Source: Candidatus Methanoperedens sp.
GTDB lineage: Archaea > Halobacteriota > Methanosarcinia > Methanosarcinales > Methanoperedenaceae
Direction of reading: 5' to 3'
Assembly (NCBI GenBank): GCA_041494705.1
Contig: JBGQBI010000005.1
Coordinates: 120,001-152,000, forward strand
Length of the DNA stretch: 32,000 bases
Shown in pieces: positions 6,658 through 24,886 of this stretch. Position 1 is the stretch's first letter, and every line of letters starts with the position of its first letter. The notes beneath the pieces are model-generated. The model worked only from the letters and a program-made list of their open reading frames with translations, had not been told where the DNA came from and did no database searches. A program made the translations under genes and the position numbers.

Positions 6658-8118
6658 CTAATTAAAATCCATTATTGAGTATTCCATGCTCGCAAGGTCA
6701 ACAACCGTAGCTTTAGCAGGCATGGGCTGGAGGTTCATCTTTTTCTGGAATTCGGTCTGGCTCTGCCATGTGCCACTATTAATAGTCAGCACCTCTTTGT
6801 AACGGGAAACTCCAACCGTGTGGACATGCCCGCAATGCAATATATCCGGTATCGTATCTATCACGAAATGGTCCTTCAGTTCAGGCGCAATTGATACCCT
6901 GCCCCCGTATATCGGCGAAAGATGACGAAGTTTTAACATCTCGCTCATGGGTTTTGAAGGGTCGCCATAAGAAAACCCCGGGATACTTGCAATTATATCG
7001 TCCATTGACCTGCCGTGATATATCAAGACCTTGACCCCGATATCCACCATCGCAGGATTTCCAACGAATATAATATCATTGCGAAACAATTTAGTAATTC
7101 TCTCTGGAAAGCGCGGCTGCGGTTCAGCCTGCCTCACCGCATCATGGTTTCCCGGCGAGACTATAATCCTGATGTGCCCCGGCACGGCATTCAGGTATTG
7201 CGCCGCTTTTTCATATTGTTCATAAATATCTGAAATCGCAAGCTCTTTATCCTGGTTCGGGAACACGCCGATGCCGTCAACAACATCGCCCGCTATCACA
7301 AGATAATTAATATCGTCTCCGAGCCATTCCACAAACTTAAGCCATGAATCTTCAAGAAAAGTCTTGCTTCCCACATGGATATCTGAAATGAACACAGCCT
7401 TTCCTTCGGGTTTTTTCCTGTTCAATGTATTTCCCTGGGTATTGGGAATGTCGGGGAACATTATTCTATTTGCAAACATCAGGCTGCCATCGGAAGAAAG
7501 CGTGCCGGTGACCCCGATTACCTCATCCAGGATTATTCTCTTCGCAAGTTCAAACAGCTCTTTATCTTTTTCTTTATGGATTAAAACAGGTATGGTTCCC
7601 GTGGTATCCTCAACCTCGATTAATTTATGCCCTTTGGCGCTTGTCCTGATATCCAGGACCATCCCGATAATAGAAAGCGGCTCTCTTGTATCCAGGTTCC
7701 TTTTCTTGATGCTTTCAATGGGTCTTGCGCTTATTCTTTTACGGAGCATATCCCCGAGTGAACTGAAGCGGTCCCTGAAATAATGCACGAACTCCGTATA
7801 TTCCCCGATGCAAGTTGACTGGTTTGTTATGTCTTTCAATATGGTAACCGGGTTTCCGTCGGGTTTAGCTTTGGATGGAATTGCATCCTGCTTTTGAGGT
7901 ATGGTTTTAGTCTTTTCTTTCAAGATATTGGTTTCAGGACGGGGCTTTTGAACCTGATGCTTTATGTGTTCTATCCCTACGACCATTACGGAACTGTCTA
8001 TTGATTTTAAAACATCGTGTATTAACTCCGGAGAACTTGTTTTCATTAAATCAAGTGCCAGGGGGTCAATCTGGAATCCTGATTCGGCAAACATTTGGAC
8101 GATTTCACCAGTCTCCAT
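6658..8118 (-). CDS. polB: DNA polymerase II (PolD) small subunit DP1
   Basis: 486 aa. Calcineurin-like phosphoesterase motifs DIHVGS, GDVVDG, GNHD and GHVH, with an OB-fold region upstream. Confidence 0.9.
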   Translation of the reverse strand: METGEIVQMFAESGFQIDPLALDLMKTSSPELIHDVLKSIDSSVMVVGIEHIKHQVQKPRPETNILKEKTKTIPQKQDAIPSKAKPDGNPVTILKDITNQSTCIGEYTEFVHYFRDRFSSLGDMLRKRISARPIESIKKRNLDTREPLSIIGMVLDIRTSAKGHKLIEVEDTTGTIPVLIHKEKDKELFELAKRIILDEVIGVTGTLSSDGSLMFANRIMFPDIPNTQGNTLNRKKPEGKAVFISDIHVGSKTFLEDSWLKFVEWLGDDINYLVIAGDVVDGIGVFPNQDKELAISDIYEQYEKAAQYLNAVPGHIRIIVSPGNHDAVRQAEPQPRFPERITKLFRNDIIFVGNPAMVDIGVKVLIYHGRSMDDIIASIPGFSYGDPSKPMSEMLKLRHLSPIYGGRVSIAPELKDHFVIDTIPDILHCGHVHTVGVSRYKEVLTINSGTWQSQTEFQKKMNLQPMPAKATVVDLASMEYSIMDFN

Positions 8119-9755: not shown

Positions 9756-9992
9756 TTAAAACTCTTCTGCGACATCGAGGTCATGTTCAAAGCGCCATGG
9801 GATACATTTGGGTCTGTTCCTGTCCCTTTCCCGGATTTTGTCCTGGAGTGCCTTGTAAGCCACATGATACTCTTTATCCCGCGCAGGGTCGCGTTTTGCT
9901 TCTTCTTTCAGTTCAGATGTTATATCTTCCAGTTGCCTTATGGACATGTACTTGTAGCGGTCGGCGCTTGAGTTAATGACAATTCCTCCCAT
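9756..9992 (-). CDS. Hypothetical small charged protein
   Basis: 78-aa ORF (63 aa if it starts at MSIRQLE). A TATA-like ttatataa lies upstream at 10043-10050. Confidence 0.4.
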   Translation of the reverse strand: MGGIVINSSADRYKYMSIRQLEDITSELKEEAKRDPARDKEYHVAYKALQDKIRERDRNRPKCIPWRFEHDLDVAEEF

Positions 9993-10064
9993 ATTGCTTT
10001 TGCCCGGGGTCGGTTTTGTAATTAATACTCTTTTAATAGGGTTATATAAGGTTATGGACTTGAT

Positions 10065-10151
10065 CTACCCGCTACCTCCCACCATCGCCTTCCTCACCAG
10101 CACATGCGGCGCCCCATCGCTCACAGGCACAAGCTGCCCCGCCTTCCTGCA
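10065..10151 (-). pseudogene. Displaced 3'-terminal fragment of tldD (28 codons plus stop); direct-repeat copy A
   Basis: 81/87 nt identical to 11194-11280. Encodes ...KAGQLVPVSDGAPHVLVRKAMVGGSG*, matching the TldD C-terminus. There is no TldD-like sequence upstream of it. Confidence 0.85.
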
Positions 10152-10227
10152 TCGCTCATAGGAAATTATAAATTCTCTGAGTACCATGAGTTTTGGTGAA
10201 TAAAATAAATAGAAAGAAGAAATCGAT

Positions 10228-10479
10228 ATGGATGTTGCAGTAAAAGCAATTGAAACAACAGGAACTGTTGACGCACAGCATAGGCTTCTTTTAGACGAAC
10301 CGTTGCCTGTTGCTGGTCCAACACGGGTTCGTGTCATTATCCTGCTCCCTGAAGATGCAGACATTGACGAAAAGGAATGGCTTTATGCAGCCGCCACCAA
10401 TCCTGCTTTTGATTTCCTGAAGGAACCTGAAGAGGATATTTATACATCCGAGGACGGAAGACCATTTCATGATAGGTAA
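10228..10479 (+). CDS. Putative type II antitoxin (partner of MazF)
   Basis: 83 aa. Overlaps the toxin start by 11 nt. Acidic C-terminal tail (EWLYAAATNPAFDFLKEPEEDIY). Confidence 0.6.
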   Translation: MDVAVKAIETTGTVDAQHRLLLDEPLPVAGPTRVRVIILLPEDADIDEKEWLYAAATNPAFDFLKEPEEDIYTSEDGRPFHDR

Positions 10480-10813
10480 AGTAGTCCTTGTCCCTTTTCC
10501 TTTCGATGACCTTACGGCGCACAAGGTACGACCAGCCATATGCCTGACCAACCCCATTGGCTCCCATCATCATGTCGTTTTGGCGTTTATCACGAGTAGA
10601 ATACCGAACGACTTACTGGAAACAGATGTTGTTTTGGACTCAAAGTCGGCGGATTTTAATGTAACTGGCTTGCGTGTGTCCTCTACGCTTCGATTACATC
10701 GCCTTATGACAGTCACAACAGCCTTGATAAAGCGCGAATTGGGAGAGTTATCACCCGAAATGCGCGCTGAAGTGGTTAGCAAATTACGTAAATTGTTTGG
10801 TTTGAAGAGTTAG
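10469..10813 (+). CDS. mazF: PemK/MazF-family type II toxin endoribonuclease
   Basis: 114 aa. GKVVLVPFPFDDLTAHKVRPAICL is the hallmark N-terminal MazF/PemK motif. Confidence 0.85.
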   Translation: MIGKVVLVPFPFDDLTAHKVRPAICLTNPIGSHHHVVLAFITSRIPNDLLETDVVLDSKSADFNVTGLRVSSTLRLHRLMTVTTALIKRELGELSPEMRAEVVSKLRKLFGLKS

Positions 10814-10874
10814 TTAAACTCCACCAAGCTGGAATTATGAGTAATGCGGATATGAAATATTTAGATTGCAGGAT

Positions 10875-11225
10875 ATGAATATCGTAGAAGAAATCAAACT
10901 GGAGCGCCAAAAGCTCAAGCATAAATACGGAGAACTCTACGATGAAGTACTGGAGATACTGTTTCGAAATGATCCCATCGGAATCAATTTCGGAATCAAT
11001 ACTGACGAATACGAGCCAGAAACTGGCACTATTCTTTCACGATTAAAGGAAGCACATTCGCCAGAAGATTTGCAGAAAATAATTCACCAGGAATTTATCC
11101 GATGGTTCGGCGCTGATATTGCAGGTTCAAAAGCAGAATACACTACGATTGCCCAAGAGATATGGGATGCATATAAGAAACCGCCATCTAACCTCACCCG
11201 CTCCCTCCCACCATCGCCTTCCTGA
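10875..11225 (+). CDS. Hypothetical protein; its 3' end reads into the tldD repeat in antisense
   Basis: ATG at 10875 (the track's 10866 start is TTG). The last ~10 codons lie inside repeat copy B, convergently overlapping tldD by 32 nt. Confidence 0.4.
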   Translation: MNIVEEIKLERQKLKHKYGELYDEVLEILFRNDPIGINFGINTDEYEPETGTILSRLKEAHSPEDLQKIIHQEFIRWFGADIAGSKAEYTTIAQEIWDAYKKPPSNLTRSLPPSPS

Positions 11226-11280
11226 CCAGCACATGCGGCGCCCCATCGCTCACAGGCACAAGCTGCCCAGCCTTCCCGCA
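11194..11280 (-). repeat. Direct-repeat copy B (functional 3' end of tldD)
   Basis: 87 bp matching 10065-10151 with 6 mismatches. Confidence 0.85.
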
Positions 11281-12522
11281 CCTGCCAGAATTCATCTCGC
11301 GATCATTCCCCACAGCAGCAACGCTATTTAAAATCTCAAGAGTATGCCCGGACAGCGAGACATCCCGGAGCGGCGTCGTGAGTTCCCCGTTCTCTACCAT
11401 GAACCCGCGCTCGGCATTGAACTGGAACACTCCCTCGCCAGGATTCACCTGGCCACCGCGCGAGCCTTTCAAATAGATGCCGTCCTTTAATTCAGCAAGC
11501 ATCTCCTCGAATTTCATCCCATCAGGAGCTATGAACGTATTGCTCATCCTGATAACCGGGCGGGCATATCCCTGGGCGCGGGAATTCCTGCTCGACCCCC
11601 CCAACTGCCCTGCGCTCTCCCTTGAATGGATGAATGATTTCAGCACGCCGTTTTCTATCAGCGTTGTTCTCTTTGATTCCGCGCCTTCGTCATCGAACGG
11701 ATAATAGCCGTATTCGTGCAGGGACGGGTCGTCATACACCGTAATAAGAGGAGAAGCTATTTGTTCGCCTATCTTTCCCGCAAGGATGGAATTCCCCTCA
11801 AGAACATGGTCAGCCTCAACAGCATGCCCCACTGCTTCATGAATGAATACGCCTGCCAGCTCCTGGTCAAGTATCACCGGGTATGTTCCAGCTTTTGGCG
11901 TTTTTGCAGACAATAATTCAACCGCGGTATCTGCGGCTTTCCGCGCCAGCTCAAAGGCATTATGTTTCTTGAAAAACTCAAAACCCATGACGCCGAACCT
12001 GCTTTCCCTTCCAATCTGGTAAACTCCTTCAGACTGGGCAACAGCGCTTACTGCAAAACCCACGCGGTTTAACGAATATTCGCAATCAAGACCTTCCGAA
12101 CTTGAATACCTGACCGTGATTATGGACTCTGAATATATGGCATTTGTACTTTTAATGCCTTCAATCCGGGCGCTTTTTTCAATTTCCGAAAGTAATTTTA
12201 CTTTATCCTCGATTGGGATATCCTCCGGGTTTTCTTTGACCTCCGGAAGATTCTGCAAATTCGGTTTTTCTATTGGGGCAAGCCTGACCGGGCTTCTTGG
12301 ACTTTTGGTTTTGGCAGCCCTCGCAAGCCTTTTCGCAGAACCAAGTGCAGCGTTCAGGTTTCCTGATGCGCCGTCCTGCGATACGAATCCCCAGGAGCCC
12401 GAATCCAGAACTCTTACCGCAGCGCCGCTTGAAAAATTATTCGAAATCTCGCGTATCTCGCCATTATCCAGGACGATAGCTGTGCTGGCGCTCTTTATGA
12501 CACGGGTATCATAAAAATCCAT
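11194..12522 (-). CDS. tldD: TldD-family zinc metalloprotease
   Basis: 442 aa. Has the HEAVGHAVEAD (HExxxH) motif that distinguishes TldD from PmbA/TldE. Starts 6 nt after the lonB stop. Confidence 0.85.
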   Translation of the reverse strand: MDFYDTRVIKSASTAIVLDNGEIREISNNFSSGAAVRVLDSGSWGFVSQDGASGNLNAALGSAKRLARAAKTKSPRSPVRLAPIEKPNLQNLPEVKENPEDIPIEDKVKLLSEIEKSARIEGIKSTNAIYSESIITVRYSSSEGLDCEYSLNRVGFAVSAVAQSEGVYQIGRESRFGVMGFEFFKKHNAFELARKAADTAVELLSAKTPKAGTYPVILDQELAGVFIHEAVGHAVEADHVLEGNSILAGKIGEQIASPLITVYDDPSLHEYGYYPFDDEGAESKRTTLIENGVLKSFIHSRESAGQLGGSSRNSRAQGYARPVIRMSNTFIAPDGMKFEEMLAELKDGIYLKGSRGGQVNPGEGVFQFNAERGFMVENGELTTPLRDVSLSGHTLEILNSVAAVGNDREMNSGRCGKAGQLVPVSDGAPHVLVRKAMVGGSG

Positions 12523-12528
12523 GTAATC

Positions 12529-14457
12529 TCACACTGCTGTAACAGGTTTGGGTTCAGGCAGAGGTATGCTGAATTTTGTCCTTGAAGCAATTTTCTTAAG
12601 CGTAGAGATGAGACCTTCTTTCTCTCTTCCTACAAGGCTGTATTCAAGCACCTCTTCGATATTTGACACCGGGATAATTTTGATAATATCCTTGTATTCG
12701 TCCTCAATGAGAACATCTCCAAGGTTTGATTTCGGAATTATTACGGTCTTCATCCCTGCAAGCGCTGCGGCCTCTATTTTGTATGTTACGCCGCCAACGG
12801 GCAGCACATCGCCCCGTACCGAGAGCGAACCGGTCATGGCAACGCTCTGGTCAACAGGAATTCCCTGGATTGCTGAGAGAACCGCGGTGGCTATGGATAT
12901 GCTGGCTGAATCGCCTTCTACGCCTTCATACGTTCCCACGAACTGGATATGGACATCCATCTTCGAAATATCCTTGCCGGTTGTCTTTTTAATCAGTGCA
13001 GATACGTTCTGGACTGCTTCTTTTGCAATGTTCTTAAGCATGCCTGTGGCAATAATGTGGCCTTCTGACGTGGATTGCGTGGGTGTGACCTCGGCTATTA
13101 TCGGAAGAACAATACCTGAATCGTCGCCCATCACTGCAAGACCGTTAACCCTGCCTATCTGTGCGCCCTCTTTCACGAACAGCTTGTAATCCTTCCTGCG
13201 CTCAAGATACTGGTGCGCAAGCTGCTGCTCGACCGAGCGCGCGATGCTTTTTGCTTTCAAAACATGCTGGGCTGTCGTGAGCGGCGCATTTTCACCATGC
13301 GCTATATCGCCTGCGACCCTGACAAGACCTCCAAGGTCACGAAGTTTAAGCGTCAAATGTCCCTTTCTTCCTGCCCTGCGCCTCGCTTCGCGGATGATTT
13401 CTTCCACGGCGCCCCGGTCAAAATGCGGGATTTTTCCGTCCCTGATAACTTCCTGGGCTACGAACCTGACAAGTTTCTGCCTGTTTTCTGCGGTATCTTC
13501 GATAGTATCGCTCATATAAACTTCATATCCGTATCCTTTTATACGCGAGCGCAATGCCGGGTGCATGCCTTTTATCGCGTCAAGGTTTCCCGCGGCTACC
13601 ATTATGAAATCGCATGGAACCGGGTCGGTTTTTACCATTGCCCCGCTTGAACGTTCTGACTGGCCTGTTATCGCGAATTCCTTTTCCTGTAGTGCAGTAA
13701 GAAGATTCTGCTGCGACTCTATCCTTAACGTATTTATCTCGTCTATGAATAGCACTCCCTTATTGGCTTTATGTATCGCCCCGCACTCAACCCGGTCATG
13801 GGCTGGGGTTTCAAGTCCTCCCGACTGGAAAGGGTCATGGCGGACATCGCCAAGAAGGGCTCCGGCATGTGCCCCTGTGGCATCGATATAAGACGCAACT
13901 TCCTTGCCTGTATTTGAAACAAGAAGTTTCGGTATCAATAGTGTTTCCTTTGGCATGAACTGGCGCATCATCATGGCGATTAAAACCGCTGCTATGATTC
14001 CCAGGAGATACTCCCTGATAAAAAATGAATAACCGACAATACCAAGCACAAGGAGCATTATGAACATGTTCCGCGCCGTGGTTCTTTTCTGGGCTTCAAG
14101 TTTGTGGGCGTCGGTAATCTCCTTGCCTTTACCCGCCGGAACAATTCGAATCTTCGGGTTATTCGGGTCGTCCGGGTTGTTGTACACAAGCACATCCTGC
14201 AATTCTTCTTTCGGAAGTAATTCAGCCATCGCTTTTGCCAGCATTGATTTGCCAGTGCCCGGTGTCCCGAGCATCATCACATGCCTTCGCTGGTTCGCTG
14301 CTTTCCTGACCACTTCTACAGCATGTTCCTGGCCAATGACCTGTTCAATTAACTTCTTGGGAACCTCGATATCTTTTGTGGACGTTATCTCCAGACCGCC
14401 AAGAATATCCTGGTTCTTTAATTCGTTTTCAGTATTTTCCTTTTCAGTATTTTCCAT
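12529..14457 (-). CDS. lonB: Archaeal membrane-bound Lon protease (LonB)
   Basis: 642 aa. Walker A GTPGTGKS, two TM helices inserted in the AAA+ module, and a C-terminal Ser-Lys protease domain (GDSASISIATA). Confidence 0.92.
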   Translation of the reverse strand: MENTEKENTENELKNQDILGGLEITSTKDIEVPKKLIEQVIGQEHAVEVVRKAANQRRHVMMLGTPGTGKSMLAKAMAELLPKEELQDVLVYNNPDDPNNPKIRIVPAGKGKEITDAHKLEAQKRTTARNMFIMLLVLGIVGYSFFIREYLLGIIAAVLIAMMMRQFMPKETLLIPKLLVSNTGKEVASYIDATGAHAGALLGDVRHDPFQSGGLETPAHDRVECGAIHKANKGVLFIDEINTLRIESQQNLLTALQEKEFAITGQSERSSGAMVKTDPVPCDFIMVAAGNLDAIKGMHPALRSRIKGYGYEVYMSDTIEDTAENRQKLVRFVAQEVIRDGKIPHFDRGAVEEIIREARRRAGRKGHLTLKLRDLGGLVRVAGDIAHGENAPLTTAQHVLKAKSIARSVEQQLAHQYLERRKDYKLFVKEGAQIGRVNGLAVMGDDSGIVLPIIAEVTPTQSTSEGHIIATGMLKNIAKEAVQNVSALIKKTTGKDISKMDVHIQFVGTYEGVEGDSASISIATAVLSAIQGIPVDQSVAMTGSLSVRGDVLPVGGVTYKIEAAALAGMKTVIIPKSNLGDVLIEDEYKDIIKIIPVSNIEEVLEYSLVGREKEGLISTLKKIASRTKFSIPLPEPKPVTAV

Positions 14458-24805: not shown

Positions 24806-24847
24806 GGAACAATTATAATCAACAGTAATAGTCAACAGGATTGACAA

Positions 24848-24886
24848 AATATATAAAAAGAAAATCTAACGGCTGCAAATCAGCCG
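24848..24886 (-). terminator. Hairpin plus T-rich tract downstream of the two-CW gene
   Basis: The minus strand reads cggctgatttgcagccg (6-bp stem), then ttagattttctttttatata, starting 7 nt after the stop at 24893. Confidence 0.35.

Follow-up and report, generated by a model that had tools for sequence, protein, structure and literature searches.

How does a small group of genes come to stand inside the end of a chromosomal gene, with a copy of that gene end on either side, when it carries no gene for its own mobility? The question is raised by a stretch of Candidatus Methanoperedens sp. DNA (contig JBGQBI010000005.1 of assembly GCA_041494705.1, positions 120,001 to 152,000), here called the window, by which we mean this whole stretch of 32,000 nt. 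In the window the 3′ end of tldD occurs twice, and the two copies enclose a cassette made of a MazEF toxin-antitoxin (TA) pair and one small open reading frame (ORF), ORF119. Comparison with related loci indicates that insertions have recurred at the tldD 3′ end of one Methanoperedens clade, a hotspot where different TA modules are separated by partial gene ends. The explanation that we favour, with about even confidence, is that the cassette is an old insertion scar at this TA/defence hotspot behind tldD, found in one large clade of the genus and made by host recombination anchored on the conserved gene.

A duplicated gene end bounds the cassette

The direct repeat pairs positions 10065-10151 with 11194-11280, and 81 of its 87 nt are identical (a find-repeat alignment gives 85 nt at 95%). 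Both copies lie on the minus strand, in frame with the final 28 codons of tldD and a stop codon, which is TAG in the distal copy and TGA in the native one; the original prediction, made from the letters of the window, was accurate on the coordinates, the codons and the stops. Four of the differences are internal: codon 2 reads AGG or GGG (R/G, first position), and codons 4, 19 and 26 differ synonymously at the third position. Homology of the native copy to the distal copy and to other genomes stops exactly at the stop codon. Because the pair is the sole direct repeat of at least 30 nt with high identity in the 32-kb window, and all 26 repeated 20-mers come from it, the tldD-end repeat is far above chance expectation. 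Elsewhere in the window, an AT-rich 33-nt direct repeat of 76% identity (2930-2962 and 24834-24866, ~22 kb apart) is probably due to chance.

Four independent contigs, one of them longer than 1 Mb and one an NCBI metagenome-assembled genome (MAG) contig, show the same gene order, and the structure is therefore real. An independent Logan unitig of 1145 nt (L082, from SRR29605729) equals window positions 10110-11254 and has copy-specific variants at both ends. We also considered this unitig as a circular form of the cassette and rejected it as such, since it equals the unitig expected from the 44-nt identical core at k=31 and fits both an integrated and a circular form; unitigs of this kind can be mistaken for small circular elements. 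An assembly artefact, allowed for by the original prediction, has practically no probability left: the data are all metagenome assemblies and contigs L099, L100 and L082 break within the repeat, as a chimeric join or a collapsed repeat might suggest, but the same structure stands in the four contigs, the copies are distinguishable at six differing positions, and orthologous structures recur across many separately assembled MAGs.

The interior measures 1042 bp and holds the antitoxin gene, the PemK/MazF toxin gene and a 116-aa ORF, without an integrase (Table 1). Family scans bore out what had been read from the sequence on this point, namely a TA pair plus one small ORF and no integrase.

Table 1. 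Features of the cassette and its surroundings in the window
Feature	Position	Strand	Description
Ancestral downstream flank	9756..10064	-	72-nt spacer and 78-aa gene (9756-9992)
Distal repeat copy	10065..10151	-	Non-coding, attR-like; joined to the ancestral downstream flank; two novel substitutions
Antitoxin leader	10152..10227	+	Promoter-like; TATA-like TTATAAAT at 10166-10173; abuts the distal repeat
Cognate antitoxin (83 aa)	10228..10479	+	Overlaps the toxin start by 11 nt
MazF/PemK-family toxin (114 aa)	10469..10813	+	Pfam PemK_toxin PF02452, E 3e-12
ORF119 (116 aa here)	10875..11225	+	Small all-helical protein; separate module from MazEF
Native repeat copy	11194..11280	-	Last 28 tldD codons and TGA; functional, attL-like; cassette DNA directly after
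tldD (442 aa), target gene	11194..12522	-	Pfam PmbA_TldD_1st, 2nd and 3rd domains, E down to 6e-74
Archaeal lonB	12529-14457		tldD lies downstream of lonB

Empty, single and stacked states coexist in relatives

A TldD-based scan with one genome per species gave 32 Methanoperedens loci, which were searched for the 87-nt end. Maps of the loci were built from BLAST, ORF lists and family scans and are written in tldD orientation; the related loci are MAG contigs with no more than 6-7 kb of flank, obtained in one genome-collection and one metagenome-collection scan. Extra copies of the tldD end were found in 10 of the 32 GTDB loci, one or two in each (12 in total), at variable spacing downstream of the gene, and the remaining loci are single-copy. 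Counting contigs from ENA, JGI and Logan, about 20 related loci have one or two extra partial copies, with no more than three copies per locus. The modules that the copies separate are MazEF, AbrB-PIN, ParE/RelE and ribbon-helix-helix (RHH)-PIN (Table 2), and the same patterns are repeated in L099, L100 and L106, which were found through homologues of MazF and ORF119.

Table 2. Order of modules and tldD-end copies behind tldD (numbers in brackets give the part of the 87 nt present)
Locus	Order after tldD
Window	ORF119, MazF, MazE, copy (1-87), flank
L004	MazF, MazE, copy, HNH gene
L001	AbrB-antitoxin and PIN, copy (33-86), ORF119 homologue, MazF and MazE, copy (1-87), Phd-like, ParE/RelE and 238-aa gene, flank
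L002	Phd-like and RelE, copy (about 8-85), flank
L030	Phd-like and RelE, copy (about 13-77), 92-aa gene and PIN, copy (1-87), MazF (contig end)
L003, L005, L007, L031	Truncated antitoxin remnant, copy (14-87), then RelE, MNT-HEPN, HNH or 924-aa TIR-NACHT-TPR protein
L025, L093 (M. nitroreducens type)	ORF119 remnant, MazF, MazE, copy (17-85), MNT-HEPN
L006	Stop codon, 8 nt, 78-aa-gene flank directly (empty site)

In L006 the native tldD end occupies the place of the window's distal copy, which is the empty site, tldD followed by the 78-aa gene, whose search the original prediction had proposed. In the window, an empty-site junction would read as the tldD end followed by ATCAAGTCCATAACC. L104 (6870-13742) has a 6.7-kb island between the native copy and one distal copy, with N6-methyltransferase fragments, AbrB-PIN, RHH-PIN, UPF0158, DUF1186 and MNT-HEPN pairs and an ORF119 homologue, and without an integrase.

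Some of the islands also hold defence-type genes. The 924-aa TIR-NACHT-TPR protein is encoded at 7753-10527 of L031, and HNH endonuclease genes abut the distal copy in L004 and L007. At L008 7326-7640 and L031 10640-10975, a gene for a Phd/YefM-like protein of 63-67 aa is convergent to a ParE/RelE toxin gene with a 4-nt overlap, a layout that is unusual for a TA pair. The Phd/YefM-like gene is left alone beside the flank in both loci, and ~35 nt of the toxin gene remain in L008.

In other Methanosarcinales genera, no tldD-end duplication of comparable length was found. A different structure occurs at L050 7310-7410, and also in L053 and L051 (Ca. Argoarchaeum / GoM-Arc1): a 30-nt sequence, GGAGGCACTGGATGCTAAATATAGAAGAAA, is directly duplicated around a 40-nt insert at the tldD stop, which itself overlaps the start of the next gene. 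The insert contains a perfect 9-bp hairpin, CTCGATTGC TTC GCAATCGAG, and the whole is a miniature insertion whose long target sequence is duplicated, at this same end of the gene in a sister lineage.

Anatomy of the copies

All copies, whether native or distal, close with a stop codon (TAA, TAG or TGA), directly behind which the next module starts. A distal copy's upstream edge varies with the module that precedes it. It lies at position 1 in copies of the MazEF type, at ~14 in a derivative with a 13-nt deletion that has the same upstream promoter-like sequence as the MazEF type, at ~8-16 in the RelE type and at ~33 in the AbrB-PIN type. Copies of the RHH-PIN type also begin at position 1 and have ~5 upstream bases in common with the MazEF type; the two types may be of one origin. 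The RelE-linked copies of L002 and L030 have derived substitutions and 150 nt of upstream sequence in common, and their downstream neighbours differ. On the other side, the junction TAG + (A/G)TCAAGT joins the window's distal copy to the flank and is the same at the RelE-type copy of L002. Another flank allele, TAA + ATCATCCA, is common to L006, L003, L005 and L031; in L003, L005 and L031, island DNA abuts this junction without a long copy.

The distal copy is joined without a break to the ancestral flank, and the native copy to the tldD body. From window position 10057 downwards, the flank is collinear with L002, L003, L005, L006 and L031. Since L006 provides an empty site, the flank is continuous, and other TA modules are each followed by a stop-ended partial copy, the alignments support a geometry of insertion inside the gene's end with a replacement end, as in a Campbell-type event. 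Here the earlier reading of integration into a gene's 3′ end is upheld in its geometry, and at least three to four other TA modules stand at the same place. Compared with its relatives, the window shows that foreign DNA, the MazEF module with ORF119, was joined to tldD by recombination inside the last 87 bp of the gene.

The original prediction had argued from codon positions that both copies evolved as coding sequence, and this argument is not supported: third positions account for three of the four differences, an outcome with P = 0.11 under chance alone, and only two of the changes belong to the distal copy, at position 4 (a first codon position, also changed in the distal copy of L004) and at position 78 (a third). 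When relatives are used to polarise the differences, the one at position 57 proves to be synonymous and derived on the side of the native gene of the window, and position 12 is polymorphic among native alleles. The window's TAG and TGA are each one step from the TAA of close relatives. Pooling the 12 distal copies gives 82 differences from the native consensus. Forty-two of them also occur in native tldD alleles of other lineages (32 of the 42 at third positions), which points to exchange between strains; the other 40 are novel, and their spread of 18:7:15 over the three codon positions argues that distal copies decay neutrally. We conclude that distal copies began as genuine tldD ends, some of them like the alleles of other lineages, and then decayed. 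The internal RelE-linked copy of L030 ends in GGGGCGGGG, an allele typical of the native genes of L024 and L025 and unlike L030's own gene; at 8020-8052 it has a 9-nt tandem duplication, GATGGTGGG.

The MazEF cassette is old and the RelE unit points to exchange

Many relatives, down to 78% core identity, have the same MazEF insertion, and the divergence of the MazEF unit tracks that of the lonB-tldD core. Compared with the window, the unit and the core are 79.8% and 77.9% identical in L025, 93.0% and 90.2% in L004, and 92.1% and 95.9% in L001. In a neighbour-joining tree of tldD, MazEF at this place is limited to one large clade; in the other half of the genus, unrelated housekeeping genes follow tldD and no copies are found. 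The distal copy is interrupted and degenerate in L096, and in L102 and L103 MazEF is present and the copy gone. Because divergence tracks the core, the insertion is confined to one clade, and the distal copy is degenerate or lost in some members, the window's cassette is an old, vertically inherited scar and not as a recent or demonstrably active element. It is present in all four contigs of the window's strain, with no sign of polymorphism. A duplication common to the relatives and diverging neutrally had been named in the original prediction as what would speak against it; for the MazEF cassette this is partly the case, in that many relatives share the insertion and its copy drifts neutrally.

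The RelE unit behaves differently. In L030 it is 91-95% identical to the units of the window's clade, whereas the cores are only 82-84% identical, and this points to lateral exchange. On the tldD tree, L006 with its empty site is nested among cassette-bearing relatives, so that, within the population, states are lost or exchanged.

Some modules have no copies beside them. L101 (1-870) carries a MazEF module 89.5% identical to window positions 10156-10812, leader included, with no tldD fragment; it lies ~130 nt from tRNA-Arg(CCG), beside the gene of an NmeDI-like restriction enzyme. In L104, the AbrB-PIN module directly adjoins the RHH-PIN module, and no copy separates the two. As these modules do without, the copies are scars and not obligatory cassette ends. 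Outside the archaea, the MazEF pair is 76-83% identical to pairs on bacterial contigs, where there are no flanking repeats. We thereby ruled out that the duplication is intrinsic to the MazEF family, whose close bacterial homologues stand by an aldo-keto reductase gene without flanking repeats.

No recombination machinery is found at the locus

Neither the 32-kb window nor any of about 45 related loci has a transposase, a tRNA or a known RNA, and the repeat matched no Rfam family. Nor did an integrase turn up in the window or in any related locus, the 6.7-kb island of L104 included, so the earlier statement that the cassette lacks one holds well beyond the window. The integrase census covered 78 downstream ORFs of the 32 loci through their 25 most frequent Pfam families, a format in which single matches could be hidden; 20 larger ORFs were scanned individually, and the Pfam tables of the additional contigs were inspected as well.

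The repeat itself shows no core-site structure. As single-stranded DNA, neither copy folds better than shuffled sequence on either strand (z +0.6 to +1.5), the repeat contains no inverted repeat of at least 6 nt, and no dif-like site was found in it, that is, no pair of arms of at least 6 nt with a 4-10-nt spacer. A search for the cassette on extrachromosomal elements, as the original prediction had advised, returned nothing in the collections covered: the repeat core (as an exact 43-mer and as a degenerate 29-mer), the TldD C-terminus and MazF were not found in viral contigs, and the whole cassette had no match in phage and plasmid collections. A metagenome scan with the degenerate core returned one ordinary single-copy tldD locus only. 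We found no literature report of tldD as an attB site or of Methanoperedens elements that target it; the jumbo element described from Methanoperedens integrates at tRNA-Asp.

The small ORF of the cassette was considered as a hidden recombinase, an excisionase or a split integrase of the SSV type, and was rejected in all three roles: it matches no family, and its model is a helical bundle like that of 1u84. Read through a left-type copy, its frame would be extended by only ~25 residues.

Host recombination or a lost integrase

What remains is to explain how the scar was made. Incoming DNA with a tldD end would recombine within the last 87 bp of the gene; the functional tldD would gain the incoming end with its stop codon and the cargo behind it, and the former end would stay, non-coding, on the old flank. 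The scar would then be inherited vertically while its distal copy drifts neutrally and is sometimes lost, and the same process, together with ordinary recombination between copies, could build the arrays of different TA modules seen in relatives. Most likely the recombination was the host's own, homologous or homology-facilitated illegitimate, judging from what the loci contain. The DNA could have come from another strain or from a looped-out circle, anchored on the conserved lonB-tldD, and a single crossover with a circularised fragment is possible; no element-encoded integrase would be needed. A module with a flanking copy could be looped out, re-inserted, stacked, deleted or transferred by plain homologous recombination, and the boundary at the stop codon would simply mark the passage from conserved coding sequence to variable island DNA. 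TA pairs would be what remains because they are addictive. We favour recombination by the host because about 45 loci hold no integrase, the repeat has no core-site structure, some modules have no copies, and the distal copies resemble other strains' fossil alleles.

Several points weigh against host recombination. Classically, a direct repeat made from the 3′ end of a gene marks integration by a tyrosine integrase, and in archaeal elements blocks of identity usually measure 40-100 bp. Three to four independent junctions all fall in the last 87 bp of tldD and none in the 72-nt spacer, save the at-stop junctions in L003, L005 and L031, a clustering that looks more site-directed than random illegitimate joining would be. 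We could demonstrate neither a donor molecule nor microhomology nor a recombination tract; at the tldD 3′ end of L030, identity rises only slightly, which is non-diagnostic. Given short-flanked MAG contigs and single collection scans, an integrase-bearing relative could have been missed.

These points lead to the main rival, which we hold to be unlikely overall and still the one to be taken most seriously: that the cassettes are decayed integrative elements, the remains of a plasmid or provirus whose tyrosine integrase targeted the tldD 3′ end and whose attP carried the replacement end. Deletions would have spared the TA pair and the att copies, and such remnants could still be mobilised in trans by a related integrase. 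This account suits the attL/attR geometry and the empty site, as well as the attP-like left edges that differ by module and the right edge shared at the stop, and it explains the left edges and the clustering of junctions in 87 bp equally well. Bacterial elements are well known to accrete in tandem at the 3′ end of a gene, the island of L104 with its methyltransferase fragments looks like a larger element in decay, and Methanoperedens does host integrase-bearing elements, though the one described uses tRNA-Asp. However, not even a fragment of an integrase was seen in the about 45 loci, and no attP-bearing free element appeared in the viral, phage, plasmid and metagenome scans. The window's cassette is fully occupied by three intact small genes, and the repeat lacks an inverted-repeat core. 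The account would moreover require three to four independent decays down to a bare TA pair, each sparing both att copies.

A more active role for the site is also conceivable. We give a low probability to the idea that the tldD stop is the platform of a system, working with a recombinase in trans or with none, that captures, stacks and shuffles TA cassettes and exchanges them between strains. If this were true, the platform would be an archaeal functional analogue of integrons, with the end of a protein gene in place of attC and attI. Its integron-like form, in which circular TA cassettes with a partial tldD end are still inserted and excised at the tldD stop by an unlinked recombinase, is rather improbable. 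It would account for arrays whose copies, three at most, separate different cassettes in varying order, for cassette-specific copies that recur in different surroundings, the RelE cassette standing ahead of the flank in L002 and ahead of the PIN cassette in L030, and for the lateral spread of the RelE cassette; TA cassettes are, besides, typical of chromosomal integrons. But there is no IntI-like gene and no attC-like folding, the cassettes are in mixed orientation and have their own promoters, and modules in L104, L101 and L102/L103 lack copies. The MazEF cassette is, moreover, ancient with a decaying copy, it is carried by all four contigs of the window's strain, and the apparent free cassette, L082, is an expected unitig.

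Still further from the evidence is a purely internal rearrangement, a tandem duplication or unequal crossing-over with the genes between the copies acquired later, which is very improbable: several copies may share one origin, the MazEF and RHH-PIN types having the same left edge and ~5 upstream bases, and recombination between copies alone can build arrays, yet the sequences after the native and distal copies are unrelated, unlike those of a tandem duplication, the RelE- and AbrB-PIN-type copies differ in left edge and flanking DNA, and MazEF is foreign, 76-83% identical to bacterial pairs.

Cassette genes and genomic setting

The two overlapping genes fit the architecture of a type II TA system, a PemK/MazF domain behind a small overlapping antitoxin gene, in a pair that is kept in bacteria. 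We take them to be a type II TA system of the MazF/PemK family, with toxicity and neutralisation predicted. The N-terminus of the antitoxin resembles the RelN-family antitoxin model (E 1e-13, below cut-off), and the protein is 76% identical to the one upstream of the MazF homologue in bacterial contigs. In L085-L092, bacterial-looking contigs, a pair 76% (antitoxin) and 83% (MazF) identical stands between aldo-keto reductase and alpha-2-macroglobulin genes, and MazF homologues at 73-80% are annotated from Desantisbacteria, Deltaproteobacteria, Latescibacteria and Anaerolineae. Among 3505 MazF homologues, identity is 73-83% even in bacteria. This MazEF appears to be a cross-domain TA family that is either very recent or very constrained. 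The leader may act as a promoter; its ~45 nt beside the repeat are conserved next to mazE (in the window and L025), to a truncated mazE (L003) and to an ORF119 homologue (L104, L106).

ORF119 has about 25 homologues, typically of 105 aa, found only in Methanoperedens-type contigs and, in every case examined, inside the island behind tldD. It is absent from the cassette of L004 and partly deleted in L025, and its order is changed in L104 and L106. In the window its frame lacks the usual stop and runs 32 nt into the antisense of the tldD end, so that the two 3′ ends overlap convergently by this length. No Pfam or NCBIfam family scores above cut-off for it. Its AlphaFold model (pLDDT 82) is a helical bundle; among PDB entries it comes closest to 1u84, a functionally uncharacterised Bacillus protein (TM 0.61/0.77, E 0.2).

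The setting is the core chromosome of Candidatus Methanoperedens: genes in the window include those for MutS, the PolD small subunit, PAC2, LonB, an S2P protease, isocitrate/isopropylmalate dehydrogenase, fibrillarin and FtsZ. The lonB-tldD context is kept for the tldD orthologues of the 32 Methanoperedens loci. Lon degrades type II antitoxins in bacteria, and TldD/TldE is linked to CcdA degradation in E. coli. The TA/defence island lies directly behind two protease genes, lonB and tldD; a functional link is possible, and the arrangement may be coincidence.

Comparison with known systems

How small addiction and defence modules move without mobility genes of their own is a long-standing question. 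The tldD locus adds an archaeal example with TA cargo, in which one 87-bp target was hit repeatedly. Close relatives show empty, single and stacked states side by side, so that old and younger events can be compared and the mechanism is testable. The 3′ flank of lonB-tldD is at the same time a hotspot for defence and TA islands in an environmentally important methane oxidiser. The locus also counsels caution: direct repeats of a gene end without an integrase need not be decayed prophages.

Islands at ssrA and elements of the SSV and pNOB8 types carry their own integrases and target RNA genes. The tandem Dehalococcoides ssrA islands (PMC3146451) and archaeal tRNA-targeting elements (PMC7253208) resemble the tldD locus in the reuse of one gene 3′ end and in direct repeats that mark the insertions; at tldD, however, the target is protein-coding and no integrase is present. 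Like an integrase-borne element in general, the cassette has attL/attR direct repeats that duplicate part of tldD and restore the gene, but no recombinase gene lies within or beside it. Integrative mobile elements exploiting Xer (IMEX) insert at dif, and the tldD repeat, unlike theirs, has no dif-like site. Chromosomal integron arrays share with the locus short one-operon cassettes, a repeated separator, a fixed platform and richness in TA systems. They differ from it in that the tldD locus has no IntI, attI or folded attC, its separator is a host coding end, and its cassettes are in mixed orientation with their own promoters.

Also comparable are the cis-mobilizable elements (CIMEs) of the accretion arrays described in streptococci, tandems of integrative and conjugative elements, integrative and mobilizable elements and CIMEs, in which CIMEs keep attL and attR without an integrase (PMC5704250). 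The tldD cassette keeps attL/attR from a gene's 3′ end without an integrase and has tandem copies, and the structural definition fits. In contrast to CIMEs, the tldD cassettes are only 0.4-1.1 kb long and the repeat has no recognisable core site; a CIME is by definition tied to a cognate integrase-bearing element, and such an element was not found in the collections searched, a search that was not exhaustive.

The published phenomenon that the locus matches is insertion with long target duplication, known from bacterial restriction-modification modules and still without an established mechanism (Nobusato et al. 2000; Furuta et al. 2010, PMC2853133). The screen of Furuta et al. (2010) selected units of <20 kb with no transposase or integrase, a target duplication of >30 bp, an empty site, and restriction (R) and modification (M) genes; the repeats often extend across the stop site, which lets the target gene survive, and none of the cases that passed was archaeal (PMC2853133). 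The tldD cassette is likewise a unit without a mobility gene, of 1042 bp and hence below 20 kb, with an 87-bp repeat, and L006 aligns with a single copy. Here too the repeat spans the stop, tldD is intact, and the cargo is a small addictive module. The differences are that this cargo is a type II TA pair in place of R and M genes, that the locus is archaeal, and that its target was reused, in arrays of up to three copies. By this comparison, the tldD locus appears to match insertion with long target duplication in all but its R and M cargo, as an archaeal case with TA cargo and a reused target.

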